Source: Flectonema sp. DT1601 (Eukaryota). From it: a stretch of 64,000 nucleotides of DNA. Positions 22,559 to 64,000 of the stretch are shown piece after piece. The notes beneath the pieces are model-generated. The model saw only the letters and a program-made list of their open reading frames with translations, made no database searches and had not been told where the DNA came from. The DNA lies in the NCBI GenBank assembly GCA_964019425.1, contig OZ025781.1:1736001-1800000 (forward strand), read 5' to 3'. Positions within the stretch are counted from its first letter, which is position 1, and each line of letters opens with the position of its first letter. The translations under genes were made by a program, and so were the position numbers.

Positions 22559-22736
22559 ATCACATCACTGCTGAGATCACATCACTGCTGAGATCACATC
22601 ACTGCTGAGATCACATCACTGCTGAGATCACATCACTGCTGAGATCACATCACTGCTGAGATCACATCACTGCTGAGATCACATCACTGCTGAGATCACA
22701 TCACTGCTGAGATCACATCACTGCTGAGATCACATC
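22559..22736. repeat. Perfect 17-bp minisatellite (CACATCACTGCTGAGAT), about 10.5 copies
   Basis: Read directly: period 17 bp, no spacers. Confidence 0.97.
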
Positions 22737-42153: not shown

Positions 42154-42709
42154 AAACGAATGTCTAGATTTTTACTGTACAATTTTAATGTTCTTGTATT
42201 CAAGTTTAGTTGTTTATTTTCAGTGCTTTCATTTAAACTGCTGTTTCCCCCATAAGGACGATTCCAACACGGCAAAGATGTATGCAGCTAAGTTAACATT
42301 TATTACTTCAGTGATTATAAAAACGTGGTCTTTCCCTTGTAATAGCTTGCATGGAGCATGTCCCCAGCCCACTATGCTGATGCAGAGAGCAGAATTGTCG
42401 CGCACATTGCAGAGATAAGTTTGACAGACCTGTTGTGAATGATTTATAAAATAATTTCAAATGCAACAGATAACCCAAGCCACATGCCCAATAACCCACT
42501 GTAACCTAGCCGCGGTTTTCATTCTTGCATATTTACAAAAAAAAAGAAAATTAACCCTTACCACCATAAGAACCCCTAAAACAACAGGTCCAATTATGTT
42601 TTTTCAAAAAGAGAAAAGGTACCCCCCCAGAAATAACGATACTGGATGAGGGCAAAACCCAAGAAAATTTCTCATAAGGAATTTAAAAAAAGGCAAGAAT
42701 GATAAAAAG

Positions 42710-43258
42710 ATGATTAAGATTACTGACACTTCTAAAACACAGAAACCGACAACAATAACTTGCACAGATCAAATAATCAATGCGATTAAAACTACTACGA
42801 AAAATGACACCTGCGCCAACACATCTGATAATGGCAATACGGATGAGACATCAAAGAAGAACAAGAACTCATGCATTCTGCCACCTATCACACCGCCACA
42901 AAGATCTATAGAACCGACATATGTAGACACAGATAATATCAAGAGAATATGTCGATACTGTGGGAAGACTAAAAAATCGATTATTCATCATTTAACCAAA
43001 TGCTAATTGTTCAAAGCTTCAAAGGACTATCCGACTTATATAGATGAAGATGATAAGACGAGATATGAAGTTACAAACGAAAAGATTAATGAGAATAATA
43101 AAGTTATCTCGGTAATCAAGGACAGAGAGACAACCAGTATGCGATCTATCAAGAAAAGCGGCAAGTTAATAACACAAACGATTCATGTCAAAAATCCGTC
43201 TACCATCTTTATTATATCCAAAGTTTTTTTAGTACAATTATTCACAAGAAACACTTAG
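42710..43258 (+). pseudogene. Decayed A-rich coding relic with a CxxC...H...C zinc-finger motif, possibly transposon-derived
   Basis: Two abutting in-frame ORFs split by one stop. The first ends CRYCGKTKKSIIHHLTKC. Composition differs from neighbouring genes. Confidence 0.3.
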
Positions 43259-43339
43259 CAAAATTCGGATTCCAGAAAAAAAAAATTTTTTTTTTTTGAC
43301 CTTTTTTTTTTTGACTTTCTGATACTAAATTATCGACGG

Positions 43340-43795
43340 TTAAAGTTCTACAGGCTGGTCTTGTGTACCAAGGCTGTTAAGATTAGTCTCGGTCCAGAAT
43401 CGAAACGATTGTTGCCTGTGCATTACCTCTGCATACCAACCTGGTGGGGGCTTGATAACTATGTCTTGAATGTTGAGGTTGCTTCCAGATACATAAGCGT
43501 GGTTCATATTTAGAGCCCAGAAAAGGACAACATATCCACAAATAACGTTGTTGGTAGCTGGTTGCACACCAGTCTTAATAAATGAGATGTCAAAATTACT
43601 AAAAGCAAAACGGAGTGCCGCTTTGGTAGTGCTGGTGATGCAGTCTAGACGAGGATCAACTACAACTAAGGAGTTCCCTTCCCCAATAGTTGTAACAGCC
43701 AGTAGCCAGTGTGAGGTTTCATACTTTTTTATAGTTTTTTTTCTGAGAATCCACCATCTTAAGTTCCAAGTGAGATTTGGACTGTTAGCTTTTGG
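43340..43795 (-). pseudogene. Ulp1/C48-like cysteine protease relic
   Basis: I extended the 43340-43567 frame by hand; it is open to 43795 and reads SHWLLAV...VVVDPR...GVQPATNNVICGYVV, the H-D-Q-C order of Ulp1 proteases. There is an in-frame TAG at 43796-43798 and no ATG ahead of the domain. Confidence 0.5.
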
Positions 43796-44108
43796 CTAAG
43801 TTGCCTGAAAGGCAAGAACAAAAAAACTACTCTCATCTGAAGAAAACATAATACACAAAGAACACACATACAAGTACATCGCATCGCTTGCTGAACCTCC
43901 TGAGCGAAAGCAAGTCGGGTATCTCTCGCAGGTTTGCGAACCTGTGTTTGTAACTGTAAAAAATGTCTCACAAATTACCCTCATCTGTTATATCTGTCAA
44001 TTATAAATAACAATTTTAAAATCATTTTTTACTTTGAAGAACAAGAAACAAACAATCAACTCACTACCTTCTTTATGACTATTCATGCAAGTGTTTGATT
44101 TAATGGTG

Positions 44109-44115
44109 AAAAAAA
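44109..44115 (-). terminator. Pol III T-run terminator of tRNA-Glu
   Basis: T7 on the minus strand, 1 nt after the discriminator base. Confidence 0.8.
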
Positions 44116-44116
44116 G

Positions 44117-44188
44117 TTCCTCCTCTGGGGTTCGAACCCAGGTCGCCTGGGTGAAAGCCAGGTATACTAACCACTGTACTAAAGAGGA
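44117..44188 (-). tRNA. tRNA-Glu: tRNA-Glu(TTC)
   Basis: TCCTCTTTAGTACAGTGGTTAGTATACCTGGCTTTCACCCAGGCGACCTGGGTTCGAACCCCAGAGGAGGAA folds as a cloverleaf, with anticodon arm CCTGG-CTTTCAC-CCAGG and T-loop TTCGAAC. Confidence 0.96.
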
Positions 44189-44439
44189 CATATTACTTTT
44201 CTTTTTTTTTTTTTTTTTTTTTTTTTTGGTTACACTCGTCTGTGCTTCCAGACTCTTTGTTTTTGTTCTTTTCACTTCTTTGTTTTGTCTTTCTTTTATA
44301 CTTTCTTTTGGTTTAAGTCTGACAAATTGGAAAACACGGGAAACATAGGTAGGCTCCGCCTGAGGACGTAAGAAGAGCGGCAACGGGAAAAAATAAATGG
44401 TCACGCGTCCTTGAAATTGGACACACGAAGCTAATTCGG

Positions 44440-44659
44440 TTACCATTCCTACCATCGATAAGGAAAAACAAAGAATCGAGCATATAACTAGAGCGGTGGT
44501 CAAAGACCACTTGAACAGCCCGAAGGCCTGCCCTCAAGAGAAATTTATAAGGAGAATAGGAGAAAAAGGAGACAGGAGTGTTGGAAGAGACACTGCGACA
44601 ACACCGAAGGTGATGTGCAGTTACCCAACCAGGAGATGATTGATAATGATGAAAATACT
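44440..44659. repeat. 220-bp non-terminal direct repeat, 3' UTR copy
   Basis: Identical by eye to 50180-50399 (offset 5740 bp). Confidence 0.97.
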
Positions 44660-44687
44660 AAATATTGATAAAACACTTAAATGGCGA

Positions 44688-47600
44688 CTACGTGTCACCT
44701 ACACAATTCCAAAGTCTCAGGTTGGATGCTTGTTCCATCCACCTGATCAACATCGCTACTGAAGGAAGCCAGCTGGTGGCAAAGATTGAGCCAAGACTGG
44801 CAGGAATGCCGTTGATGAGGATTAGATCACTTGATCGGTCCCATTTGCCTGTCAATGTAGAAAAGCCAAGGATTTCATATCTGGCTGCATCGAGTTTCTG
44901 TGATGGACAGCCTACGAGTAGGTGGAGTTGGTTGGATGGAGCGCTATGGCAGAATGGACATTTGATGGCTTTCCGCCAGTTTTGCATCAGTGGATGACAC
45001 CCCGTTCTAAAATTCGCAATTCTGATTTCATCGCTCCTTTTCATGTCGGGAGGATATTTTATCGCGGCACCTTTGACGGTGTTTTTATAGCAAGTGTAAC
45101 CAATTCTGTTCCAAATGTCCTTCGTGATCCCCCTCCTCACTCGGGATTTGTGATAGAAGAAGGATCCTCGGATTGGGATTTGAGGGAGGTATCTGTTGTG
45201 AGCCGATTTCTTAGCAAGTTCATCAACTTCGTCGTGTGCTTCTATCCCCATATGAGAAGGGATGAATTGAAGATGTACTTTCATACCGCAGTTCCGTAGG
45301 TTCTCGAGGATGCCGAGGGATCTGGTGTTTCTCTGTTTACACCTGCCACCCTTCAACTCGTCCAACAATGATTTTGAGTCGGTATAGATTCTGACTGACT
45401 TAGTTAGCCCGTCTTTCTGTACCTTCCAGTTTAAGTAGTTTGCCGCATTTTTCAAGGCATGTTGCTCAGTTCTGTAGCTGCAATCCGCACGCACTAATCT
45501 GGTCGCATGAGCACGTTTCTTTCCGTCTCGTGACCTAGCAATGAGAGCCGCGCCTGACGCATTCGAAGAGTATGAACCGTCACAGTTGATCACCATGTCC
45601 ACCGGAGGAAGTGTCGCGTTGTAGGTAAGGAATTTCTCCCTGTCCACTGCGGGATCAGGGGATTTTGTAAAACCGCAGCTGTTGCTGATTTGAACATTGT
45701 CCGAAGCAATCCAAGGTTTGATAGAGTCAGGTTGAACGATCCCCACACTTTCTAGTTGACCTTCAGAACGGGGAATGAGGCCACCCCAGAAGCTTCGAGG
45801 CGATGCGAGTGAGTTGGTGTCCGGCACCCAGGTCATGGCTTTGTACCTGAAATAGGCAATTTTAGTCTGCTTTTCGATTTGTCTTTTAAACGGTAAGATG
45901 TCGGCTTCCCAAAGGAGCAACTCCCTCGGAGTACATCTGCTGCATCCTGTTACGAGTCTCGCTATTTTTCTCATCTCGAAGTCGATAGCATCCGTTTTAT
46001 GCTGGTTGAGCAACCAACCAAAGCTGTCCAGTGCATAGGAAATCCTCGCTGTCACGTACAAGTTTTTAACCATCTTTAGGGTCTTGTAGTCCAATTCATA
46101 TGGCTGGAGGCACTGCAGAAGGGAGATCCCTTTCTTCAGTTCGTCGTGTATTTTCTCTAACTGTTTATCAAACCTGAGCCTGTTATCAATGTAAACACCC
46201 AGATATTTCACTGAGTCCGTGATCGGCAGTAGGAAGGCAATTTTAATTTTCGCTTTGACATTCATCTCGTCGTGGATGTTCAACATCAGTAAATCTTCTA
46301 ATTCTTGTTGAGTCCTGATGGGTTTCCCCTCTACTTCGAGGATCGTTTCACCACTCAGTAAAGTGGGCCTTGTCGTCGTCGTGTTGATCACGCTGTCTAG
46401 ATCAAAATAGTCAATATCTAACGAACGTACTTCCAGTGATTTTGAGAATAAGAGTTCGCGGTCGCTAGTATCAGTCAGGGTTACTTCTTTCGATTGAATA
46501 TCCATTTTCAGAGCGCAAGTCTTGGAGACTGAAAGTGCCATGTCATTATCACGGCACCACTTGTCAACGATGTCAAGTATTCGTTGAGCGTTTGAGATTG
46601 CTTCGTCCATGGTCGAGCCAAATACTGCACAAGCGGTGTCGTCTGCATACAGTGCGGTCAAAGTCGTTTCCTTCTCTTGTGAGAGAATCTTACACAGATC
46701 GTCAACATATATTAAATAGAGTAGTGGGCCTAAGATTGATCCTTGAGGCACTCCTTTTGACAGCGTACGAAACTTACTGAAATGTCCATTTGCATCAACT
46801 CTGACCTTCCTATTGGTTAGAAAGTCCGTTATCCATCGAACGATGAAGGTTGGGATGCCCATTCTTTGTAGTTTTGAAAGTAAAATTCGATGGTTAATCC
46901 TATCGAAGGCTGCTGTGAAATCGAATGACAAGAAGACTGACCTCCTCCCCTTCGTGTGGTTGTTTACCATGGCGTCCACCAGAATTGTGATTTGTTCGCA
47001 GGTATTTCTGCCCCGTCTGAAGCCAGCTTGAATCGGACTGAGTGCTGAGTTTTCGGTAAGCCAATGCATGAGCCTGTCGTACACCAACCTCTCAGCCAGT
47101 TTGCCAACAACCGAAGTGAGTGTGATTGGTCTGTAGCTTTTAATATCGTTCCGCGGTTTGCCCGACTTGAACATCGGTTTGATTAACCCCTGTTTCCAAA
47201 GATATGGAACATTGGAGGATCTCCACGAAGAATTGATCACCTTTAATAAACAGTCAACTGCCTTCTGAGATAAGTTCTTAAGCATTTCGTTGTGAATACC
47301 GTCAGGGCCTGCTGCTTTGCGAGGCTTCAGGTTTTTAATTGCTGCTGATATCTCGGTATCTGTGAAGTCACAACAGATGTCCAATTCCAAGTCTTCTTTC
47401 TTCAATGAAGGGGCTTCGAGTTTAGCAGCATCCCCATCGGCCACAGAGAGGTCCAGAAATGCTGCAGGTAAATCGTTCTCAGATATATTTGATACGCTGA
47501 TGTCCTTACCAGCGTCCTGTTGGAGTTCTTTAATCTTCTTGAAGGCGAAGTTAAAGTTGTTCCCCTTCCTCAGTTGGTCTTTCAGGTGACTACCTTTTGA

Positions 47601-48668
47601 TTTTATAGATTCAGGTGAAGAGGTCTTCCACTTACGTCGGCGCTTGCCCTTAAATAAGATTCTCCTCCGCACGTTCCTCGCAGCTACTTCATGTATTATG
47701 TTATTTAATAATCCAACATTACCAGTGGCATCATCCGAGAACTTAGCCCTATCAATTCTTCTATCAAGTTGCTGTCTGAAAGCACTCCAGTTTGTAGATT
47801 TGAAATCCCAGACAGTTCGTTTCCTTGCTCCAACTGTTGCTTGAGAGAGGTGAGCCATTGTGTCGAAGATAGCGAGTAGAGGTCGATGATCCGAGTTATG
47901 TTTACTGTCTTCATTTATGATTGAAAATTCTTCTAATACAATTGATCCTTTAAAGAATATAACGTCAGGTGAGGTACCACCGCCAGGAATGTCGTGTTTG
48001 GGCCGAGTTATTTGACCAGGTCTGTTTGCTACGAGAACGTCATTGCGATCCGCCCAATTAAATAATTCTTTACCAGATTTGGTTGTCCTGGTAGACCAGA
48101 CGAGGTTGTGTGCGTTGAAGTCGCCCGCAATAATAGACTTCGTTGTGATCGGAAGATCATCTTCTCTAATGATACACCCAGGGGGAGCGTAAACGTTAAT
48201 AACATTGACACCACCAACATTCAGCATCATAGCTTCGATACCGCTTGTTCTCGAAAACAATTCTTCATCACTGATTCCTTGTGAGAAGCATCTCTTTGCC
48301 ATTATTATAATGCCACCACCTTTTGTATTTCTGTCCTTCCTATATGTATAATAGCCAGGGTGCGAAATGTGTTCCTTCGACCAGGTTTCCTGTAAGCACA
48401 GTACATCCGGCGAGTAGTGAGAAAGGAGTCTTTGAATATAAGACCCCTTCTGACTTATCGATCTACAGTTCCAGCTCAACACTGAGAGTAACGAATTTTC
48501 AGGTCCAGGGTTGCGTTCAACGTCGCCTGCCAGCAGTAATAAACTTCGGGTCAGTTCTTTTTCAGTTTGAGAGATAGTCGGTGCTGTTACAGTAGTCGGC
48601 TTCACCAGAACTTTACTATGATGTGAGTCATTTTTAGAATTTGAAGTTGACGGTGTTCGTTTGTCAAG
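44688..48668 (-). CDS. Retrotransposon ORF2: 2A peptide, AP endonuclease, reverse transcriptase, RNase H, CCHC knuckle
   Basis: 2A: LLLLAGDVERNPGP. APE: SWNCRS, LCLQET, AGDFNAH, SDHRP. RT: KAAGPDGI, YRPITLTS, GVPQGSILGP, YADD, KYLGV. RNase H: NCDGS, YRTE, YTDSKS, PSHMG...DELAK. Knuckle: CPFC...HLLVGC. The frame is open back to the ORF1 stop, with no ATG before the endonuclease. Confidence 0.95.
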   Translation of the reverse strand, partial: LDKRTPSTSNSKNDSHHSKVLVKPTTVTAPTISQTEKELTRSLLLLAGDVERNPGPENSLLSVLSWNCRSISQKGSYIQRLLSHYSPDVLCLQETWSKEHISHPGYYTYRKDRNTKGGGIIIMAKRCFSQGISDEELFSRTSGIEAMMLNVGGVNVINVYAPPGCIIREDDLPITTKSIIAGDFNAHNLVWSTRTTKSGKELFNWADRNDVLVANRPGQITRPKHDIPGGGTSPDVIFFKGSIVLEEFSIINEDSKHNSDHRPLLAIFDTMAHLSQATVGARKRTVWDFKSTNWSAFRQQLDRRIDRAKFSDDATGNVGLLNNIIHEVAARNVRRRILFKGKRRRKWKTSSPESIKSKGSHLKDQLRKGNNFNFAFKKIKELQQDAGKDISVSNISENDLPAAFLDLSVADGDAAKLEAPSLKKEDLELDICCDFTDTEISAAIKNLKPRKAAGPDGIHNEMLKNLSQKAVDCLLKVINSSWRSSNVPYLWKQGLIKPMFKSGKPRNDIKSYRPITLTSVVGKLAERLVYDRLMHWLTENSALSPIQAGFRRGRNTCEQITILVDAMVNNHTKGRRSVFLSFDFTAAFDRINHRILLSKLQRMGIPTFIVRWITDFLTNRKVRVDANGHFSKFRTLSKGVPQGSILGPLLYLIYVDDLCKILSQEKETTLTALYADDTACAVFGSTMDEAISNAQRILDIVDKWCRDNDMALSVSKTCALKMDIQSKEVTLTDTSDRELLFSKSLEVRSLDIDYFDLDSVINTTTTRPTLLSGETILEVEGKPIRTQQELEDLLMLNIHDEMNVKAKIKIAFLLPITDSVKYLGVYIDNRLRFDKQLEKIHDELKKGISLLQCLQPYELDYKTLKMVKNLYVTARISYALDSFGWLLNQHKTDAIDFEMRKIARLVTGCSRCTPRELLLWEADILPFKRQIEKQTKIAYFRYKAMTWVPDTNSLASPRSFWGGLIPRSEGQLESVGIVQPDSIKPWIASDNVQISNSCGFTKSPDPAVDREKFLTYNATLPPVDMVINCDGSYSSNASGAALIARSRDGKKRAHATRLVRADCSYRTEQHALKNAANYLNWKVQKDGLTKSVRIYTDSKSLLDELKGGRCKQRNTRSLGILENLRNCGMKVHLQFIPSHMGIEAHDEVDELAKKSAHNRYLPQIPIRGSFFYHKSRVRRGITKDIWNRIGYTCYKNTVKGAAIKYPPDMKRSDEIRIANFRTGCHPLMQNWRKAIKCPFCHSAPSNQLHLLVGCPSQKLDAARYEILGFSTLTGKWDRSSDLILINGIPASLGSIFATSWLPSVAMLIRWMEQASNLRLWNCVGDT

Positions 48669-50093
48669 TCAGTTTGAATTATCCATTTCCACATCAGTCG
48701 TTTCAGTAGTATCGGTTGGTTCTTCAGCACAGTGTCGCTTCAGATCACCAGATATAACTGGACCCTTGCCCGGGTTGAAGGTCGGCCCCAATTTGACCGG
48801 CTTTTCTCTTTTAGTTTCCATGTTGATTACAAGGTACGCATCTTTACCCATGTCGACGAAGCTTGGTGATGGAACCGATTCAGAGATTGCAATTAACGTT
48901 TTGTTGCCTCCCTTATGAAAACTAGCCACAATTGTGTGACTCCACTTGTATGCGTGCAACAGGTGATCGCTGATCTGTTGCGTCGTGAACTTCTTAATAG
49001 CCAGTGATTTAATTATAAAACGCTGACCAGTCGGCAGTGCGGGTTTCAGAGAATCCCCGAGTGATTCTCTCACTTTTTGAGTAAACCCGGGTTGAACTTT
49101 CAGCCCAAAGCACTCTCGGAACTTCGTGATGTAGAAGCTACCTTTGATTGCTGAAAGAACTGAAAGTTTGCCCAGCACCGCTTTGAAGCCCAAGTCCTTA
49201 ACGAACTGAACTGTGTTCCAAGAGTCTTGGCCATTAGACCAAGATGGGTTTCTGATGAATAGATCTCTCTTCTCACTGGAGGTGTCGCTGTTGTTGTATT
49301 CCAGAATTTCAGAAATTCTGAAGTTTGGCACACGGATCGCCATAGATGTGTGCATATCGCATTTTTTAAATCCGAAGGGCGATGTCTTCAGCTCCCACTT
49401 TTTAATTAATTCTTTCACCTTAGTGGTGAGAGTGCTCTCTGCTGATTTACTCCAGTCTTGTATGAATAGAACTGGGTCCGGCTGTGGTGGCTCGATGGCG
49501 TCTTCTCTTGCGGCAGTGAAATCTTTGCCACAAATCGGGGTGACAAATACCCTACGAATGACGCAGGTTCCGCACTTCTTTACGACTGGAAGTGCGACTG
49601 GGACTGTTGTTTTAAACAGTTTAGACTTTGAGATGGCAGTCCAGTCGCCCTTCGTTCGTGTTTGCTTCAGTGCTTCATAATCAGCCTTTGAGCTGATGAG
49701 CACGAGTCCGTCCGCGTTGTTTTTGGAGGCATCGATTGCTTCTGAGAATTTAAGCGTAGGTGTTGCTTTAGCCCACGCTGCGTGAATGTACCACTCTGGC
49801 AGAGTGGGTTTCTTGTTGTTGGTAGTTGGCGTCGGGCCTCCATCATTTCCATCCCTCACCGTGCTCGCCGCTTCCTGTCGTTGTCCCCCGGACTCCTTCC
49901 CCTTCCTCTCTTGCTCTGTCGTCTTTCTCTTTGACGACTCTCCTTGTTTCTCTCCGGAGTCCTCCGTCAGCTGCTCCAGCACTCTCATCGTGAGAGTCAA
50001 AACCCTCCTTCTCTTTTCTTCTCCTGCTAGTCCTTTCTCCACTTCTTGTACTAACCGCATCACATCCAAAAGCAGCTCCTTACAACTGCTCAT
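48669..50093 (-). CDS. Retrotransposon ORF1 (474 aa from the first ATG; function unknown, putative RNA-binding/chaperone)
   Basis: Long basic ORF directly upstream of and in frame with ORF2, with a helical N-terminus. An AG (ctgacag) lies shortly upstream of the ATG at 50093. Confidence 0.8.
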   Translation of the reverse strand: MSSCKELLLDVMRLVQEVEKGLAGEEKRRRVLTLTMRVLEQLTEDSGEKQGESSKRKTTEQERKGKESGGQRQEAASTVRDGNDGGPTPTTNNKKPTLPEWYIHAAWAKATPTLKFSEAIDASKNNADGLVLISSKADYEALKQTRTKGDWTAISKSKLFKTTVPVALPVVKKCGTCVIRRVFVTPICGKDFTAAREDAIEPPQPDPVLFIQDWSKSAESTLTTKVKELIKKWELKTSPFGFKKCDMHTSMAIRVPNFRISEILEYNNSDTSSEKRDLFIRNPSWSNGQDSWNTVQFVKDLGFKAVLGKLSVLSAIKGSFYITKFRECFGLKVQPGFTQKVRESLGDSLKPALPTGQRFIIKSLAIKKFTTQQISDHLLHAYKWSHTIVASFHKGGNKTLIAISESVPSPSFVDMGKDAYLVINMETKREKPVKLGPTFNPGKGPVISGDLKRHCAEEPTDTTETTDVEMDNSN

Positions 50094-50179
50094 TATAGTT
50101 TTATGTCTGTCAGAAAACCCGCACAAAATCGACTCTCACCAGGTAATGGTAGGAAATCAATAAAGTACAGAAGAATTTT

Positions 50180-50399
50180 TTACCATTCCTACCATCGATA
50201 AGGAAAAACAAAGAATCGAGCATATAACTAGAGCGGTGGTCAAAGACCACTTGAACAGCCCGAAGGCCTGCCCTCAAGAGAAATTTATAAGGAGAATAGG
50301 AGAAAAAGGAGACAGGAGTGTTGGAAGAGACACTGCGACAACACCGAAGGTGATGTGCAGTTACCCAACCAGGAGATGATTGATAATGATGAAAATACT
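50180..50399. repeat. 220-bp non-terminal direct repeat, 5' UTR copy
   Basis: Identical by eye to 44440-44659. Confidence 0.97.
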
Positions 50400-51027
50400 G
50401 GAAAGGAGATACCGCAAGCAGCGATCAAGAATCCGGTGAAACACCCGACGAAGGGATGGTGTGATAGGTGTGGAGAGCGGATCGCGAAGGGAACGCGGGT
50501 AGTCATGTGCGTGAAGTGTGACTACGCTGAATGCTGCGGATTGTTGGAGAGATCGCGGCGTGGGAAAGAGAAGAGGAAAAGGAAATCACGGGGATCGCGA
50601 TCGAAAAACGATGCCATGTGAGAAGCATGAAACGGAAAGTGAATGAACGGAAAAAATTAAATGTAAAGAAGTGAACTTGTAAAAAATGTAAAGAAGCAAA
50701 CATGTTAAAAGAAAAATGAAAAAAAAAAAAAAAAGAAGAGTGAAAAGGAAGACAGAGTTGTATGTAAACTGTATGTAAATGTAAGAAGAAAGAAAAAACA
50801 CGCTGGAAGTGGGAGTGCAACCATCAGCGCAAACACAACCACAAATATTGTTTTTTTTTTCCTTTTTCTTTTCTTCGCTTCGGCGACAGATATGGTAGGA
50901 CCTAGAAAACCGGCCCAAAACTTGTGTTGCAGTTTATCTTTTTAGCGCACACTCATGTAACATAAGGATCGCTGGTTCCGAGGGTTTGCTCTCCTGCCAT
51001 ACTTGCCTCTCACCTCCCTCAAAAAAA

Positions 51028-51066
51028 AACCAACGATTCTAAAGCTACAGTTTCTGTACTTTATTG
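51028..51066 (+). other. Complete 39-nt spliced-leader exon in processed (trans-spliced) form
   Basis: AACCAACGATTCTAAAGCTACAGTTTCTGTACTTTATTG has the kinetoplastid/diplonemid SL length and the conserved ACAGTTTCTGTACTWTATTG 3' half. It is not followed by an SL-intron GT donor. Confidence 0.93.
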
Positions 51067-54000
51067 TTTTTTCCCTCCCTCGCCCCATCCCCGTCAGCGA
51101 GTAGGAAAGCGCAGCTAGGAATTTTTCCACGCAAGCGGATCCCACAACCCGACCACCCTTCCCCACGCTCACCCCATCCACCCTCCCCCACCCCAACAAA
51201 AGAAGAAAACGGCGGCAGCCACGTGACACACTCGTGTTCGTGTAGCGAAGCGTTTCGGCGACTTCGAAGACGACGACGACGACGACGACGTAGAAGAGAC
51301 GGTGTATGTGACTGACCTTCTTCTTCCTTATTTATCTATTTACTTTTGTTAATTACTTCCTCTTAATTTCATTCCTCTCTTAGATTGTTGTTTATTTGCT
51401 TATTTATTTGTTTGTTTATTTGTCTGTTTATCTGTCTGTATATTCTGTTACTATCTGTTATCTTGTTACATTTATCTGTATATTAGAGTACATTTTTGTT
51501 ATTGTTAAATTAAAACATCTTCTTCACAGTTTTTTCCCTCCCTCGCCCCATCCCCGTCAGCGAGTAGGAAAGCGCAGCTAGGAATTTTTCCACGCAAGCG
51601 GATCCCACAACCCGACCACCCTTCCCCACGCTCACCCCATCCACCCTCCCCCACCCCAACAAAAGAAGAAAACGGCGGCAGCCACGTGACACACTCGTGT
51701 TCGTGTAGCGAAGCGTTTCGGCGACTTCGAAGACGACGACGACGACGACGACGTAGAAGAGACGGTGTATGTGACTGACCTTCTTCTTCCTTATTTATCT
51801 ATTTACTTTTGTTAATTACTTCCTCTTAATTTCATTCCTCTCTTAGATTGTTGTTTATTTGCTTATTTATTTGTTTGTTTATTTGTCTGTTTATCTGTCT
51901 GTATATTCTGTTACTATCTGTTATCTTGTTACATTTATCTGTATATTAGAGTACATTTTTGTTATTGTTAAATTAAAACATCTTCTTCACAGTTTTTTCC
52001 CTCCCTCGCCCCATCCCCGTCAGCGAGTAGGAAAGCGCAGCTAGGAATTTTTCCACGCAAGCGGATCCCACAACCCGACCACCCTTCCCCACGCTCACCC
52101 CATCCACCCTCCCCCACCCCAACAAAAGAAGAAAACGGCGGCAGCCACGTGACACACTCGTGTTCGTGTAGCGAAGCGTTTCGGCGACTTCGAAGACGAC
52201 GACGACGACGACGACGTAGAAGAGACGGTGTATGTGACTGACCTTCTTCTTCCTTATTTATCTATTTACTTTTGTTAATTACTTCCTCTTAATTTCATTC
52301 CTCTCTTAGATTGTTGTTTATTTGCTTATTTATTTGTTTGTTTATTTGTCTGTTTATCTGTCTGTATATTCTGTTACTATCTGTTATCTTGTTACATTTA
52401 TCTGTATATTAGAGTACATTTTTGTTATTGTTAAATTAAAACATCTTCTTCACAGTTTTTTCCCTCCCTCGCCCCATCCCCGTCAGCGAGTAGGAAAGCG
52501 CAGCTAGGAATTTTTCCACGCAAGCGGATCCCACAACCCGACCACCCTTCCCCACGCTCACCCCATCCACCCTCCCCCACCCCAACAAAAGAAGAAAACG
52601 GCGGCAGCCACGTGACACACTCGTGTTCGTGTAGCGAAGCGTTTCGGCGACTTCGAAGACGACGACGACGACGACGACGTAGAAGAGACGGTGTATGTGA
52701 CTGACCTTCTTCTTCCTTATTTATCTATTTACTTTTGTTAATTACTTCCTCTTAATTTCATTCCTCTCTTAGATTGTTGTTTATTTGCTTATTTATTTGT
52801 TTGTTTATTTGTCTGTTTATCTGTCTGTATATTCTGTTACTATCTGTTATCTTGTTACATTTATCTGTATATTAGAGTACATTTTTGTTATTGTTAAATT
52901 AAAACATCTTCTTCACAGTTTTTTCCCTCCCTCGCCCCATCCCCGTCAGCGAGTAGGAAAGCGCAGCTAGGAATTTTTCCACGCAAGCGGATCCCACAAC
53001 CCGACCACCCTTCCCCACGCTCACCCCATCCACCCTCCCCCACCCCAACAAAAGAAGAAAACGGCGGCAGCCACGTGACACACTCGTGTTCGTGTAGCGA
53101 AGCGTTTCGGCGACTTCGAAGACGACGACGACGACGACGACGTAGAAGAGACGGTGTATGTGACTGACCTTCTTCTTCCTTATTTATCTATTTACTTTTG
53201 TTAATTACTTCCTCTTAATTTCATTCCTCTCTTAGATTGTTGTTTATTTGCTTATTTATTTGTTTGTTTATTTGTCTGTTTATCTGTCTGTATATTCTGT
53301 TACTATCTGTTATCTTGTTACATTTATCTGTATATTAGAGTACATTTTTGTTATTGTTAAATTAAAACATCTTCTTCACAGTTTTTTCCCTCCCTCGCCC
53401 CATCCCCGTCAGCGAGTAGGAAAGCGCAGCTAGGAATTTTTCCACGCAAGCGGATCCCACAACCCGACCACCCTTCCCCACGCTCACCCCATCCACCCTC
53501 CCCCACCCCAACAAAAGAAGAAAACGGCGGCAGCCACGTGACACACTCGTGTTCGTGTAGCGAAGCGTTTCGGCGACTTCGAAGACGACGACGACGACGA
53601 CGACGTAGAAGAGACGGTGTATGTGACTGACCTTCTTCTTCCTTATTTATCTATTTACTTTTGTTAATTACTTCCTCTTAATTTCATTCCTCTCTTAGAT
53701 TGTTGTTTATTTGCTTATTTATTTGTTTGTTTATTTGTCTGTTTATCTGTCTGTATATTCTGTTACTATCTGTTATCTTGTTACATTTATCTGTATATTA
53801 GAGTACATTTTTGTTATTGTTAAATTAAAACATCTTCTTCACAGTTTTTTCCCTCCCTCGCCCCATCCCCGTCAGCGAGTAGGAAAGCGCAGCTAGGAAT
53901 TTTTCCACGCAAGCGGATCCCACAACCCGACCACCCTTCCCCACGCTCACCCCATCCACCCTCCCCCACCCCAACAAAAGAAGAAAACGGCGGCAGCCAC

Positions 54001-57000
54001 GTGACACACTCGTGTTCGTGTAGCGAAGCGTTTCGGCGACTTCGAAGACGACGACGACGACGACGACGTAGAAGAGACGGTGTATGTGACTGACCTTCTT
54101 CTTCCTTATTTATCTATTTACTTTTGTTAATTACTTCCTCTTAATTTCATTCCTCTCTTAGATTGTTGTTTATTTGCTTATTTATTTGTTTGTTTATTTG
54201 TCTGTTTATCTGTCTGTATATTCTGTTACTATCTGTTATCTTGTTACATTTATCTGTATATTAGAGTACATTTTTGTTATTGTTAAATTAAAACATCTTC
54301 TTCACAGTTTTTTCCCTCCCTCGCCCCATCCCCGTCAGCGAGTAGGAAAGCGCAGCTAGGAATTTTTCCACGCAAGCGGATCCCACAACCCGACCACCCT
54401 TCCCCACGCTCACCCCATCCACCCTCCCCCACCCCAACAAAAGAAGAAAACGGCGGCAGCCACGTGACACACTCGTGTTCGTGTAGCGAAGCGTTTCGGC
54501 GACTTCGAAGACGACGACGACGACGACGACGTAGAAGAGACGGTGTATGTGACTGACCTTCTTCTTCCTTATTTATCTATTTACTTTTGTTAATTACTTC
54601 CTCTTAATTTCATTCCTCTCTTAGATTGTTGTTTATTTGCTTATTTATTTGTTTGTTTATTTGTCTGTTTATCTGTCTGTATATTCTGTTACTATCTGTT
54701 ATCTTGTTACATTTATCTGTATATTAGAGTACATTTTTGTTATTGTTAAATTAAAACATCTTCTTCACAGTTTTTTCCCTCCCTCGCCCCATCCCCGTCA
54801 GCGAGTAGGAAAGCGCAGCTAGGAATTTTTCCACGCAAGCGGATCCCACAACCCGACCACCCTTCCCCACGCTCACCCCATCCACCCTCCCCCACCCCAA
54901 CAAAAGAAGAAAACGGCGGCAGCCACGTGACACACTCGTGTTCGTGTAGCGAAGCGTTTCGGCGACTTCGAAGACGACGACGACGACGACGACGTAGAAG
55001 AGACGGTGTATGTGACTGACCTTCTTCTTCCTTATTTATCTATTTACTTTTGTTAATTACTTCCTCTTAATTTCATTCCTCTCTTAGATTGTTGTTTATT
55101 TGCTTATTTATTTGTTTGTTTATTTGTCTGTTTATCTGTCTGTATATTCTGTTACTATCTGTTATCTTGTTACATTTATCTGTATATTAGAGTACATTTT
55201 TGTTATTGTTAAATTAAAACATCTTCTTCACAGTTTTTTCCCTCCCTCGCCCCATCCCCGTCAGCGAGTAGGAAAGCGCAGCTAGGAATTTTTCCACGCA
55301 AGCGGATCCCACAACCCGACCACCCTTCCCCACGCTCACCCCATCCACCCTCCCCCACCCCAACAAAAGAAGAAAACGGCGGCAGCCACGTGACACACTC
55401 GTGTTCGTGTAGCGAAGCGTTTCGGCGACTTCGAAGACGACGACGACGACGACGACGTAGAAGAGACGGTGTATGTGACTGACCTTCTTCTTCCTTATTT
55501 ATCTATTTACTTTTGTTAATTACTTCCTCTTAATTTCATTCCTCTCTTAGATTGTTGTTTATTTGCTTATTTATTTGTTTGTTTATTTGTCTGTTTATCT
55601 GTCTGTATATTCTGTTACTATCTGTTATCTTGTTACATTTATCTGTATATTAGAGTACATTTTTGTTATTGTTAAATTAAAACATCTTCTTCACAGTTTT
55701 TTCCCTCCCTCGCCCCATCCCCGTCAGCGAGTAGGAAAGCGCAGCTAGGAATTTTTCCACGCAAGCGGATCCCACAACCCGACCACCCTTCCCCACGCTC
55801 ACCCCATCCACCCTCCCCCACCCCAACAAAAGAAGAAAACGGCGGCAGCCACGTGACACACTCGTGTTCGTGTAGCGAAGCGTTTCGGCGACTTCGAAGA
55901 CGACGACGACGACGACGACGTAGAAGAGACGGTGTATGTGACTGACCTTCTTCTTCCTTATTTATCTATTTACTTTTGTTAATTACTTCCTCTTAATTTC
56001 ATTCCTCTCTTAGATTGTTGTTTATTTGCTTATTTATTTGTTTGTTTATTTGTCTGTTTATCTGTCTGTATATTCTGTTACTATCTGTTATCTTGTTACA
56101 TTTATCTGTATATTAGAGTACATTTTTGTTATTGTTAAATTAAAACATCTTCTTCACAGTTTTTTCCCTCCCTCGCCCCATCCCCGTCAGCGAGTAGGAA
56201 AGCGCAGCTAGGAATTTTTCCACGCAAGCGGATCCCACAACCCGACCACCCTTCCCCACGCTCACCCCATCCACCCTCCCCCACCCCAACAAAAGAAGAA
56301 AACGGCGGCAGCCACGTGACACACTCGTGTTCGTGTAGCGAAGCGTTTCGGCGACTTCGAAGACGACGACGACGACGACGACGTAGAAGAGACGGTGTAT
56401 GTGACTGACCTTCTTCTTCCTTATTTATCTATTTACTTTTGTTAATTACTTCCTCTTAATTTCATTCCTCTCTTAGATTGTTGTTTATTTGCTTATTTAT
56501 TTGTTTGTTTATTTGTCTGTTTATCTGTCTGTATATTCTGTTACTATCTGTTATCTTGTTACATTTATCTGTATATTAGAGTACATTTTTGTTATTGTTA
56601 AATTAAAACATCTTCTTCACAGTTTTTTCCCTCCCTCGCCCCATCCCCGTCAGCGAGTAGGAAAGCGCAGCTAGGAATTTTTCCACGCAAGCGGATCCCA
56701 CAACCCGACCACCCTTCCCCACGCTCACCCCATCCACCCTCCCCCACCCCAACAAAAGAAGAAAACGGCGGCAGCCACGTGACACACTCGTGTTCGTGTA
56801 GCGAAGCGTTTCGGCGACTTCGAAGACGACGACGACGACGACGACGTAGAAGAGACGGTGTATGTGACTGACCTTCTTCTTCCTTATTTATCTATTTACT
56901 TTTGTTAATTACTTCCTCTTAATTTCATTCCTCTCTTAGATTGTTGTTTATTTGCTTATTTATTTGTTTGTTTATTTGTCTGTTTATCTGTCTGTATATT

Positions 57001-60000
57001 CTGTTACTATCTGTTATCTTGTTACATTTATCTGTATATTAGAGTACATTTTTGTTATTGTTAAATTAAAACATCTTCTTCACAGTTTTTTCCCTCCCTC
57101 GCCCCATCCCCGTCAGCGAGTAGGAAAGCGCAGCTAGGAATTTTTCCACGCAAGCGGATCCCACAACCCGACCACCCTTCCCCACGCTCACCCCATCCAC
57201 CCTCCCCCACCCCAACAAAAGAAGAAAACGGCGGCAGCCACGTGACACACTCGTGTTCGTGTAGCGAAGCGTTTCGGCGACTTCGAAGACGACGACGACG
57301 ACGACGACGTAGAAGAGACGGTGTATGTGACTGACCTTCTTCTTCCTTATTTATCTATTTACTTTTGTTAATTACTTCCTCTTAATTTCATTCCTCTCTT
57401 AGATTGTTGTTTATTTGCTTATTTATTTGTTTGTTTATTTGTCTGTTTATCTGTCTGTATATTCTGTTACTATCTGTTATCTTGTTACATTTATCTGTAT
57501 ATTAGAGTACATTTTTGTTATTGTTAAATTAAAACATCTTCTTCACAGTTTTTTCCCTCCCTCGCCCCATCCCCGTCAGCGAGTAGGAAAGCGCAGCTAG
57601 GAATTTTTCCACGCAAGCGGATCCCACAACCCGACCACCCTTCCCCACGCTCACCCCATCCACCCTCCCCCACCCCAACAAAAGAAGAAAACGGCGGCAG
57701 CCACGTGACACACTCGTGTTCGTGTAGCGAAGCGTTTCGGCGACTTCGAAGACGACGACGACGACGACGACGTAGAAGAGACGGTGTATGTGACTGACCT
57801 TCTTCTTCCTTATTTATCTATTTACTTTTGTTAATTACTTCCTCTTAATTTCATTCCTCTCTTAGATTGTTGTTTATTTGCTTATTTATTTGTTTGTTTA
57901 TTTGTCTGTTTATCTGTCTGTATATTCTGTTACTATCTGTTATCTTGTTACATTTATCTGTATATTAGAGTACATTTTTGTTATTGTTAAATTAAAACAT
58001 CTTCTTCACAGTTTTTTCCCTCCCTCGCCCCATCCCCGTCAGCGAGTAGGAAAGCGCAGCTAGGAATTTTTCCACGCAAGCGGATCCCACAACCCGACCA
58101 CCCTTCCCCACGCTCACCCCATCCACCCTCCCCCACCCCAACAAAAGAAGAAAACGGCGGCAGCCACGTGACACACTCGTGTTCGTGTAGCGAAGCGTTT
58201 CGGCGACTTCGAAGACGACGACGACGACGACGACGTAGAAGAGACGGTGTATGTGACTGACCTTCTTCTTCCTTATTTATCTATTTACTTTTGTTAATTA
58301 CTTCCTCTTAATTTCATTCCTCTCTTAGATTGTTGTTTATTTGCTTATTTATTTGTTTGTTTATTTGTCTGTTTATCTGTCTGTATATTCTGTTACTATC
58401 TGTTATCTTGTTACATTTATCTGTATATTAGAGTACATTTTTGTTATTGTTAAATTAAAACATCTTCTTCACAGTTTTTTCCCTCCCTCGCCCCATCCCC
58501 GTCAGCGAGTAGGAAAGCGCAGCTAGGAATTTTTCCACGCAAGCGGATCCCACAACCCGACCACCCTTCCCCACGCTCACCCCATCCACCCTCCCCCACC
58601 CCAACAAAAGAAGAAAACGGCGGCAGCCACGTGACACACTCGTGTTCGTGTAGCGAAGCGTTTCGGCGACTTCGAAGACGACGACGACGACGACGACGTA
58701 GAAGAGACGGTGTATGTGACTGACCTTCTTCTTCCTTATTTATCTATTTACTTTTGTTAATTACTTCCTCTTAATTTCATTCCTCTCTTAGATTGTTGTT
58801 TATTTGCTTATTTATTTGTTTGTTTATTTGTCTGTTTATCTGTCTGTATATTCTGTTACTATCTGTTATCTTGTTACATTTATCTGTATATTAGAGTACA
58901 TTTTTGTTATTGTTAAATTAAAACATCTTCTTCACAGTTTTTTCCCTCCCTCGCCCCATCCCCGTCAGCGAGTAGGAAAGCGCAGCTAGGAATTTTTCCA
59001 CGCAAGCGGATCCCACAACCCGACCACCCTTCCCCACGCTCACCCCATCCACCCTCCCCCACCCCAACAAAAGAAGAAAACGGCGGCAGCCACGTGACAC
59101 ACTCGTGTTCGTGTAGCGAAGCGTTTCGGCGACTTCGAAGACGACGACGACGACGACGACGTAGAAGAGACGGTGTATGTGACTGACCTTCTTCTTCCTT
59201 ATTTATCTATTTACTTTTGTTAATTACTTCCTCTTAATTTCATTCCTCTCTTAGATTGTTGTTTATTTGCTTATTTATTTGTTTGTTTATTTGTCTGTTT
59301 ATCTGTCTGTATATTCTGTTACTATCTGTTATCTTGTTACATTTATCTGTATATTAGAGTACATTTTTGTTATTGTTAAATTAAAACATCTTCTTCACAG
59401 TTTTTTCCCTCCCTCGCCCCATCCCCGTCAGCGAGTAGGAAAGCGCAGCTAGGAATTTTTCCACGCAAGCGGATCCCACAACCCGACCACCCTTCCCCAC
59501 GCTCACCCCATCCACCCTCCCCCACCCCAACAAAAGAAGAAAACGGCGGCAGCCACGTGACACACTCGTGTTCGTGTAGCGAAGCGTTTCGGCGACTTCG
59601 AAGACGACGACGACGACGACGACGTAGAAGAGACGGTGTATGTGACTGACCTTCTTCTTCCTTATTTATCTATTTACTTTTGTTAATTACTTCCTCTTAA
59701 TTTCATTCCTCTCTTAGATTGTTGTTTATTTGCTTATTTATTTGTTTGTTTATTTGTCTGTTTATCTGTCTGTATATTCTGTTACTATCTGTTATCTTGT
59801 TACATTTATCTGTATATTAGAGTACATTTTTGTTATTGTTAAATTAAAACATCTTCTTCACAGTTTTTTCCCTCCCTCGCCCCATCCCCGTCAGCGAGTA
59901 GGAAAGCGCAGCTAGGAATTTTTCCACGCAAGCGGATCCCACAACCCGACCACCCTTCCCCACGCTCACCCCATCCACCCTCCCCCACCCCAACAAAAGA

Positions 60001-63000
60001 AGAAAACGGCGGCAGCCACGTGACACACTCGTGTTCGTGTAGCGAAGCGTTTCGGCGACTTCGAAGACGACGACGACGACGACGACGTAGAAGAGACGGT
60101 GTATGTGACTGACCTTCTTCTTCCTTATTTATCTATTTACTTTTGTTAATTACTTCCTCTTAATTTCATTCCTCTCTTAGATTGTTGTTTATTTGCTTAT
60201 TTATTTGTTTGTTTATTTGTCTGTTTATCTGTCTGTATATTCTGTTACTATCTGTTATCTTGTTACATTTATCTGTATATTAGAGTACATTTTTGTTATT
60301 GTTAAATTAAAACATCTTCTTCACAGTTTTTTCCCTCCCTCGCCCCATCCCCGTCAGCGAGTAGGAAAGCGCAGCTAGGAATTTTTCCACGCAAGCGGAT
60401 CCCACAACCCGACCACCCTTCCCCACGCTCACCCCATCCACCCTCCCCCACCCCAACAAAAGAAGAAAACGGCGGCAGCCACGTGACACACTCGTGTTCG
60501 TGTAGCGAAGCGTTTCGGCGACTTCGAAGACGACGACGACGACGACGACGTAGAAGAGACGGTGTATGTGACTGACCTTCTTCTTCCTTATTTATCTATT
60601 TACTTTTGTTAATTACTTCCTCTTAATTTCATTCCTCTCTTAGATTGTTGTTTATTTGCTTATTTATTTGTTTGTTTATTTGTCTGTTTATCTGTCTGTA
60701 TATTCTGTTACTATCTGTTATCTTGTTACATTTATCTGTATATTAGAGTACATTTTTGTTATTGTTAAATTAAAACATCTTCTTCACAGTTTTTTCCCTC
60801 CCTCGCCCCATCCCCGTCAGCGAGTAGGAAAGCGCAGCTAGGAATTTTTCCACGCAAGCGGATCCCACAACCCGACCACCCTTCCCCACGCTCACCCCAT
60901 CCACCCTCCCCCACCCCAACAAAAGAAGAAAACGGCGGCAGCCACGTGACACACTCGTGTTCGTGTAGCGAAGCGTTTCGGCGACTTCGAAGACGACGAC
61001 GACGACGACGACGTAGAAGAGACGGTGTATGTGACTGACCTTCTTCTTCCTTATTTATCTATTTACTTTTGTTAATTACTTCCTCTTAATTTCATTCCTC
61101 TCTTAGATTGTTGTTTATTTGCTTATTTATTTGTTTGTTTATTTGTCTGTTTATCTGTCTGTATATTCTGTTACTATCTGTTATCTTGTTACATTTATCT
61201 GTATATTAGAGTACATTTTTGTTATTGTTAAATTAAAACATCTTCTTCACAGTTTTTTCCCTCCCTCGCCCCATCCCCGTCAGCGAGTAGGAAAGCGCAG
61301 CTAGGAATTTTTCCACGCAAGCGGATCCCACAACCCGACCACCCTTCCCCACGCTCACCCCATCCACCCTCCCCCACCCCAACAAAAGAAGAAAACGGCG
61401 GCAGCCACGTGACACACTCGTGTTCGTGTAGCGAAGCGTTTCGGCGACTTCGAAGACGACGACGACGACGACGACGTAGAAGAGACGGTGTATGTGACTG
61501 ACCTTCTTCTTCCTTATTTATCTATTTACTTTTGTTAATTACTTCCTCTTAATTTCATTCCTCTCTTAGATTGTTGTTTATTTGCTTATTTATTTGTTTG
61601 TTTATTTGTCTGTTTATCTGTCTGTATATTCTGTTACTATCTGTTATCTTGTTACATTTATCTGTATATTAGAGTACATTTTTGTTATTGTTAAATTAAA
61701 ACATCTTCTTCACAGTTTTTTCCCTCCCTCGCCCCATCCCCGTCAGCGAGTAGGAAAGCGCAGCTAGGAATTTTTCCACGCAAGCGGATCCCACAACCCG
61801 ACCACCCTTCCCCACGCTCACCCCATCCACCCTCCCCCACCCCAACAAAAGAAGAAAACGGCGGCAGCCACGTGACACACTCGTGTTCGTGTAGCGAAGC
61901 GTTTCGGCGACTTCGAAGACGACGACGACGACGACGACGTAGAAGAGACGGTGTATGTGACTGACCTTCTTCTTCCTTATTTATCTATTTACTTTTGTTA
62001 ATTACTTCCTCTTAATTTCATTCCTCTCTTAGATTGTTGTTTATTTGCTTATTTATTTGTTTGTTTATTTGTCTGTTTATCTGTCTGTATATTCTGTTAC
62101 TATCTGTTATCTTGTTACATTTATCTGTATATTAGAGTACATTTTTGTTATTGTTAAATTAAAACATCTTCTTCACAGTTTTTTCCCTCCCTCGCCCCAT
62201 CCCCGTCAGCGAGTAGGAAAGCGCAGCTAGGAATTTTTCCACGCAAGCGGATCCCACAACCCGACCACCCTTCCCCACGCTCACCCCATCCACCCTCCCC
62301 CACCCCAACAAAAGAAGAAAACGGCGGCAGCCACGTGACACACTCGTGTTCGTGTAGCGAAGCGTTTCGGCGACTTCGAAGACGACGACGACGACGACGA
62401 CGTAGAAGAGACGGTGTATGTGACTGACCTTCTTCTTCCTTATTTATCTATTTACTTTTGTTAATTACTTCCTCTTAATTTCATTCCTCTCTTAGATTGT
62501 TGTTTATTTGCTTATTTATTTGTTTGTTTATTTGTCTGTTTATCTGTCTGTATATTCTGTTACTATCTGTTATCTTGTTATATTTATCTGTATATTAGAG
62601 TACATTTTTGTTATTGTTAAATTAAAACATCTTCTTCACAGTTTTTTCCCTCCCTCGCCCCATCCCCGTCAGCGAGTAGGAAAGCGCAGCTAGGAATTTT
62701 TCCACGCAAGCGGATCCCACAACCCGACCACCCTTCCCCACGCTCACCCCATCCACCCTCCCCCACCCCAACAAAAGAAGAAAACGGCGGCAGCCACGTG
62801 ACACACTCGTGTTCGTGTAGCGAAGCGTTTCGGCGACTTCGAAGACGACGACGACGACGACGACGTAGAAGAGACGGTGTATGTGACTGACCTTCTTCTT
62901 CCTTATTTATCTATTTACTTTTGTTAATTACTTCCTCTTAATTTCATTCCTCTCTTAGATTGTTGTTTATTTGCTTATTTATTTGTTTGTTTATTTGTCT

Positions 63001-64000
63001 GTTTATCTGTCTGTATATTCTGTTACTATCTGTTATCTTGTTACATTTATCTGTATATTAGAGTACATTTTTGTTATTGTTAAATTAAAACATCTTCTTC
63101 ACAGTTTTTTCCCTCCCTCGCCCCATCCCCGTCAGCGAGTAGGAAAGCGCAGCTAGGAATTTTTCCACGCAAGCGGATCCCACAACCCGACCACCCTTCC
63201 CCACGCTCACCCCATCCACCCTCCCCCACCCCAACAAAAGAAGAAAACGGCGGCAGCCACGTGACACACTCGTGTTCGTGTAGCGAAGCGTTTCGGCGAC
63301 TTCGAAGACGACGACGACGACGACGACGTAGAAGAGACGGTGTATGTGACTGACCTTCTTCTTCCTTATTTATCTATTTACTTTTGTTAATTACTTCCTC
63401 TTAATTTCATTCCTCTCTTAGATTGTTGTTTATTTGCTTATTTATTTGTTTGTTTATTTGTCTGTTTATCTGTCTGTATATTCTGTTACTATCTGTTATC
63501 TTGTTACATTTATCTGTATATTAGAGTACATTTTTGTTATTGTTAAATTAAAACATCTTCTTCACAGTTTTTTCCCTCCCTCGCCCCATCCCCGTCAGCG
63601 AGTAGGAAAGCGCAGCTAGGAATTTTTCCACGCAAGCGGATCCCACAACCCGACCACCCTTCCCCACGCTCACCCCATCCACCCTCCCCCACCCCAACAA
63701 AAGAAGAAAACGGCGGCAGCCACGTGACACACTCGTGTTCGTGTAGCGAAGCGTTTCGGCGACTTCGAAGACGACGACGACGACGACGACGTAGAAGAGA
63801 CGGTGTATGTGACTGACCTTCTTCTTCCTTATTTATCTATTTACTTTTGTTAATTACTTCCTCTTAATTTCATTCCTCTCTTAGATTGTTGTTTATTTGC
63901 TTATTTATTTGTTTGTTTATTTGTCTGTTTATCTGTCTGTATATTCTGTTACTATCTGTTATCTTGTTACATTTATCTGTATATTAGAGTACATTTTTGT
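51067..64000. repeat. Tandem array of a 463-bp unit: 27 full copies plus one partial, running off the window
   Basis: The ORF track recurs every 463 bp. Units start at 51067+463k, after cacAG. The only variant I noticed is C>T at 62581. Confidence 0.98.

Follow-up and report, generated by a model that had tools for sequence, protein, structure and literature searches.

A complete spliced leader heading a non-coding tandem array in a diplonemid genome, very probably a retrocopy of trans-spliced RNA

How does a complete spliced leader (SL) exon come to stand in genomic DNA, at precisely the point where trans-splicing would have joined it to a transcript? The question is raised by a stretch of 64,000 nucleotides from Flectonema sp. 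DT1601 (contig OZ025781.1, hereafter the window), in which an SL heads a tandem array not far from a LINE retroelement. An SL in genomic DNA directly marks copying from RNA to DNA, and the locus is very probably an SL-relic retrocopy of the type known from dinoflagellates, now in a diplonemid and with a non-coding cargo.

The spliced leader and the array behind it

The junction is made up of the following features (positions are those of the window).

51021..51027 (+): run of seven A before the SL (eight in sequencing run X2), target-derived or non-templated
51028..51066 (+): full-length 39-nt SL exon in genomic DNA, with no GT donor after it
51067..64000 (+): array of 463-bp units in tandem, 27 of them complete and then 433 bp up to the window end, where the array is cut
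51526..51529 (+): ACAG splice acceptor that closes each unit, its place at unit 1 being taken by the SL

The original prediction placed a 39-nt SL at the splice acceptor of the array, with the upstream sequence swapped exactly, and this is borne out at 51028-51066 (+). Units 2 to 28 are each preceded by ...CTTCACAG (the native ACAG join), the sequence upstream of each reading ...TCTTCTTCACAG; upstream of unit 1 stands the SL instead, whose end (51066) is directly followed by unit 1 and its T-run. The replaced junction is the sole ACAG in each 463-bp period (counts: one ACAG, four CAG, 20 AG). Nine of 15 host + strand ORFs likewise have an ACAG no more than 40 nt ahead of their ATG, so the one in the unit has the look of an ordinary acceptor in this species. 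Compared by eye with the 'Euglenozoa 14' SL in an excerpt of PMC3795323, the 39-mer is identical at 37 of 39 positions and differs at two. Elsewhere on the + strand of the window the only SL match is an 11-mer at 33532, at chance level, and the 12-20 nt to the left of the A-run have no second occurrence anywhere in the 64 kb. An SL RNA gene at 51028-51066 was rejected, as GT donor and intron are absent there and real genes show the GT.

Seven sequencing runs outside the assembly contain part of 49900-51529 (each at most 0.29 of its words), none of them recorded as RNA; four (X1-X4) were examined and X5-X7 (shares 0.07-0.09) left out, and their DNA nature is judged from their content. Three of the four (X1-X3) hold contigs in which the identical 39-mer follows a different upstream flank and precedes a GT donor, i.e. 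the SL RNA gene, which we assign to the species of the window by its co-occurrence with the array. The reading of the 39-mer as the leader of this species stood up in the comparison with that true SL RNA gene, from which it differs nowhere in these three of four runs. The array unit forms a 463-bp circle in all four, with three to five substitutions plus indels relative to the window. The join of flank, A-run and SL recurs in one of the four (X2), where record 9 (151 nt, depth 2.8) matches 50905-51054 without substitutions, its one difference being an added A; it extends 34-35 letters to the right of 51020, 27 of them SL, and ends before the SL-to-unit joint, which is bridged in 0/4 runs and known from the assembly alone. 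Given its low depth and different array variants, X2 is not the source of the window. No empty allele of the SL-array site was seen in these runs.

The array unit begins with 262 GC-rich nt and closes with 201 T-rich nt ending in the ACAG. Twenty-seven of the 28 units are identical (the 28th being cut by the end of the window), with a single substitution in unit 25. The unit has no coding frame with a start codon, its sole ATG running straight into a stop, and Rfam gave no match over 50850-52000 at E<=10. Folding detected no structured-RNA signal, either when the SL was folded together with the opening 274 nt of the unit (z -0.14) or for the GC part on its two strands (z +0.9 and -0.95). All six variable sites of the unit fall within the T-rich last 201 nt, for which p ~0.007 on the assumption of uniformity, and low-complexity DNA also mutates faster. 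The array is oriented like the host + strand gene cluster (15 of 19 ORFs of at least 150 aa on +), so that its earlier description as antisense holds relative to the LINE and fails relative to the host genes.

The neighbouring LINE and its flanks

To the left of the array lies a self-contained retroelement on the opposite strand, with these parts and neighbours.

44440..44659: 220-bp direct repeat on the 3' side of the LINE
44688..48668 (-): LINE ORF2, with 2A-like motif, APE endonuclease, reverse transcriptase and RNase H
48669..50093 (-): LINE ORF1, 474 aa, no Pfam match, its TGA end in frame with ORF2
50158..50172 (-): second SL remnant (SL nt 25-39) at the LINE 5' end, absent from the original prediction
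50180..50399: 220-bp direct repeat on the 5' side, 100% identical to 44440-44659, likely a target-site duplication
50400..51020 (+): flank that would have received the SL-array insertion

The minus strand stays in one frame from 50093 to 44688, interrupted only by the TGA that ends ORF1. This TGA (48671-48669, -) is followed by CT and then by the motif ahead of the APE domain, which we take to be 2A-like by its consensus. In the other copies compared (5 of 18 sequences) ORF1 stops at this residue too, hence the stop is conserved, and its readthrough between ORF1 and ORF2 is possible as far as sequence can tell. The APE domain is recognized by both PF14529 and PF03372. The family is young and abundant: the ORF1 cluster has 18 members and the ORF2 cluster 37, with one sequence present on six contigs. 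A sister family, 67% identical, counts 101 members, and both families have intact ORF2s. The closest named relatives are Flectonema neradi proteins (48% and 42%), and the 97 LINE protein matches include no named ingi or L1Tc sequence. For a host enzyme in the window, the best named relatives come from Diplonema japonicum (51%) and D. papillatum (42%), which together with the euglenozoan match of the SL identifies the organism as a diplonemid.

Only seven A-rich bases (50179-50173) separate the 220-bp repeat from the SL remnant, and the chance of finding such a remnant within 30 nt of the end of the repeat is about 6e-8. At the other side, the 3' end of the sister LINE family abuts the 44659 boundary both in run X1 and in P0150, a protein from another contig, and identity across this boundary drops from ~99% in the repeat to ~85% in the aligned sister-LINE piece, as a target boundary predicts. 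Two LINE families at one boundary favour the repeat as target DNA at a fixed site, and the arrangement suggests that insertion takes place at a fixed site and leaves an unusually long duplication (44659/44660 and 50399/50400). Two proteins from other contigs, P0149 and P0151, show the sequence from 50400 onward with a different part upstream of the same boundary; 50400-50621 encodes a Cys-rich C-terminus common to both, a peptide with no Pfam match. Given this change at the boundary, the 220-bp repeat could also be LINE 3' UTR duplicated by a jump. Whichever way the repeat is read, the 5' end of the LINE is 50172 and not the A-run.

Several minor features surround the element. Ten nt at the start of the LINE 5' UTR (50155-50146, -) are complementary to those at the end of the 220-bp repeat (about 50194-50185); a control gave matches in 6/2548 windows, the matching sites themselves included, and a role for this pairing as guide for a second nick or a template switch is speculative. 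A T-run at 44202-44227 is not favoured as the LINE poly(A) tail, there being 10 T or A runs of at least 20 in the first 51 kb. A tRNA-Glu(TTC) gene (44117-44188, -) stands where the + strand gene cluster ends, ~250 bp from the 3' repeat, and tRNA is all that Rfam found over 40000-54000 at E<=1. Further away, 22559-22736 is a perfect 17-bp tandem repeat of 10.5 copies. The flank between LINE and array contains a pyrimidine tract plus ACAG at 50850-50889. In run X2 two junctions depart from the window: at 45379 a piece of LINE runs into other DNA, and at 50214 the 220-bp repeat continues into a different sequence. Both are probably truncated copies from other places; the 50214 end gave no match when three short motifs were compared with the fetched LINE proteins.

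Routes from RNA to DNA

Three boundaries, the SL start, the SL end and the acceptor, are exact, which argues for an RNA intermediate; taking all routes together, we regard one as nearly certain. The original prediction had proposed trans-splicing, reverse transcription to the cap end and integration, and this sequence of events agrees with the exact SL ends and acceptor, with an SL equal to the exon of the SL gene, and with the flank-SL join in a second sample. We consider it likely that a trans-spliced array RNA was copied by reverse transcriptase and inserted separately from the LINE, to be expanded and homogenised later. An array transcript would have been trans-spliced at the only ACAG of a unit, and would have run through at least one further acceptor, because the internal units keep the native ACAG join. 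Reverse transcriptase would then have copied this SL-capped RNA to its cap end, the enzyme probably being that of the abundant host LINE acting in trans; the SL remnant of the LINE itself indicates that this family of enzymes has likely copied into an SL. The cDNA would have entered the flank at 51020, presumably by target priming and likely apart from the LINE event. The identical units, at least 28, may have arisen afterwards by unequal crossing-over and homogenisation rather than from one 13-kb RNA. Homogenisation fits the observation that the array units of all four runs differ from those of the window while unit 1 of the window equals its neighbours. In Leishmania, according to passages of PMC12211216, SL-capped multi-gene RNAs amount to 0.18-0.44% of aligned reads and are mostly bicistronic, a rarity which argues against a single 13-kb template.

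Other origins have to be set against this scheme. Both the SL RNA genes and the array are multicopy and tandem, and might in principle have recombined at the DNA level, a proposal that we give practically no chance: it takes three exact breakpoints (SL start, donor and the single ACAG in 463 bp) between sequences that share one base (G), and no base of SL-gene flank or intron was found on either side of the SL. An assembly or library artefact, in which cDNA or an SL-primed fragment became joined into the contig, would account for a joint that none of the four runs bridges, and SL-primed-looking concatemers are known in public assemblies; we think it highly improbable in view of an SL complete to nt 1 on a 231-kb contig and of a flank, A-run and SL joined in the same way in the low-depth run with its different array variants. 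The original prediction went further and had the SL-array lying head to head with the retroelement through a short A-run, united with it by twin priming or by a template jump linking two RNAs, that of the LINE and an SL-capped antisense one from the array, possibly a regular replication intermediate. The opposite orientation and the spacing of less than 1 kb speak for such a union, and so would a 220-bp repeat that was jump-duplicated LINE 3' UTR, as P0149 and P0151 allow. The two are in fact kept apart by the 220-bp repeat and ~620 bp of other DNA, the SL start being 629 bp from the end of this repeat, 856 bp from the SL remnant of the LINE and 935 bp from the ATG of ORF1. In a twin-primed LINE insertion, part of the element's own RNA appears inverted right next to the rest, and a single target-site duplication encloses both; here the SL-array is outside the repeat and is not LINE sequence, which made us reject this mechanism, and self-BLAST gave no sequence common to array and LINE among the matches listed. 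With a self-contained LINE that has its own flanking repeat and SL-marked 5' end, and with the sister family likewise abutting position 44659 in X1 and P0150, the coupled model is largely refuted and retains hardly any probability; SL-array and LINE look like two separate insertions, and a coupled replication intermediate, the stronger claim, is not borne out.

Two further routes keep the RNA intermediate and change how it was joined to DNA. In one, reverse transcriptase would have jumped from the SL cap onto the poly(A) of a second + strand RNA, making the A-run a tail and 50400-51020 a retrocopy. The variable length of the A-run (seven against eight) is in line with this, as are the in vivo template jumps described for R2 in the available part of PMC3414825; that the supposed second retrocopy shows neither an SL nor any other 5' mark and has an unspliced-looking acceptor 130 nt upstream of the A-run leaves such a jump with little likelihood. 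The main rival to insertion followed by expansion starts from an SL-capped cDNA whose 3' end would have recombined with homologous units of a long array already in place and whose 5' end would have been sealed to a DNA break, in effect a rearrangement patched with cDNA. At least 28 seamless units with native acceptors would then call for neither a long RNA nor a later expansion, and the flank is also found in other contexts on other contigs. No direct evidence speaks for this patching, and X2 combines the flank-SL join with a different unit variant, so that later homogenisation is needed under either route; we hold the patched rearrangement to be improbable, if well ahead of the other alternatives.

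Insertion of a trans-spliced array RNA would make the locus comparable to known systems. In dinoflagellates, DinoSL relicts in genomic DNA are established retrocopy tags, and the enzyme responsible is stated as unknown in the portions available of PMC5585692 and PMC6050394. As with those relicts, a trans-spliced leader in genomic DNA stands at the start of a transcript body and marks an RNA-to-DNA copy. Here, unlike there, the lineage is diplonemid, the SL has 39 nt, the cargo is a non-coding tandem repeat as opposed to an ORF, the relic is complete and unmutated, and a candidate reverse transcriptase with an SL remnant of its own lies nearby. If such tags are common in diplonemids, retroposition could be counted genome-wide in these marine protists, which rank among the most abundant, as in dinoflagellates, and unlike in the latter with a candidate enzyme bearing its own SL tag in view. 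The locus would also show that a non-coding, satellite-like array can undergo trans-splicing and be seeded anew by way of RNA. In Leishmania, head-to-tail repeats reportedly give rise to trans-spliced non-coding RNAs, which resemble our array in their tandem non-coding units, each with a splice acceptor; to our knowledge no genomic SL copy has been described for them.

Among retroelements, SLACS, CZAR and CRE insert into SL RNA genes and use a restriction-like endonuclease rather than APE. Our locus is like them in having SL sequence beside a retroelement in a euglenozoan genome, and unlike them in that neither SL has SL-gene flank or intron and the element encodes an APE domain; a SLACS/CRE-type insertion was rejected on these grounds, and the distinction that had been drawn from this group stands. 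The LINE is closer in layout to L1Tc and ingi, with APE, reverse transcriptase and RNase H in one frame and the 2A-like motif ahead of APE, and unlike them it has a 474-aa ORF1 set off by one in-frame TGA, a 220-bp flanking repeat and, in this copy, an SL remnant at its start. By the excerpted account of PMC1874656, L1Tc/ingi RNAs start at the internal promoter Pr77 and have no SL, and the SL-tagged LINE thus differs from them; a euglenozoan LINE may use trans-splicing where trypanosome LINEs avoid it. With one SL-marked copy, routine trans-splicing, a one-off relic and a jump onto a free SL exon explain the mark equally well.

The genome of D. papillatum, in the sections available of PMC10161547, has many LINE and SLACS ORFs, abundant SLACS-type reverse transcriptases, and a repeat that combines SL genes with 5S and U2. 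Those sections make no mention of dispersed SL relics, and seven supplement files gave no match for SL terms; a long supplementary text on repeats and splicing, perhaps outside these files, may bear on novelty. We found no report of genomic SL retrocopies in diplonemids, kinetoplastids or other Euglenozoa in a literature search that covered subscription papers thinly.

A wider hypothesis is possible, if on balance doubtful: SL-capped RNA may be a routine template of LINE reverse transcriptase in diplonemids. The LINE would then have no ingi-type promoter and depend for its replication on host read-through together with trans-splicing. New non-coding tandem arrays would be seeded in this way as well (here from one retrocopy), and complete leaders would reach other genomes, including those of large viruses, where they would stand behind viral promoters.

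Spliced leaders in metagenomes and viral contigs

A metagenome scan with the last 33 nt of the SL as query returned 118 loci, namely 69 contig ends or concatemers (RNA-like), 28 SL genes, seven internal 5'-truncated SLs and 14 full SLs behind a motif. The array unit matched none of these SL-bearing loci, and 43900-51020 matched at the tRNA only. Among the seven internal truncated SLs, four (L023, L043, L064 and L094) have no GT after them and by their sequence resemble candidate retrocopy relics; the other three are ambiguous. A preceding A-run does not characterise such SLs in general: one of the seven truncated SLs has it, and none of the 14 behind the motif. The SL of L064 is closely followed by what may be another, degenerate piece of SL (11/17 bases), comparable to the nested relics of dinoflagellates.

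The 14 motif-class loci each carry the complete 39-nt SL with no GT, ~20-30 nt behind a conserved AAAA(A/T)TGA motif and shortly before an ORF.

L017, L018, L030, L032, L044, L046, L058: motif-class SL loci (metagenome)
L061, L069, L091, L100, L113, L116, L117: further motif-class SL loci (metagenome)

L018 and L061 share one common junction. Four SL copies of the same kind (L119-L122) lie on a viral contig of 237,777 bp, IMGVR_UViG_3300046534_001516. We take the motif to resemble the early promoter of giant viruses, and the whole suggests that large viruses may encode the host leader in their own DNA. No report of virus-encoded SLs was found in the literature searched, where subscription papers were thinly covered, and this virus-like class may merit more attention than the SL-array locus. 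L119 has a second SL piece similar to that of L064 (12/17), and in L032 and L046 the genes are densely packed, among them SMC-like, RING, DUF285 and nuclease genes.
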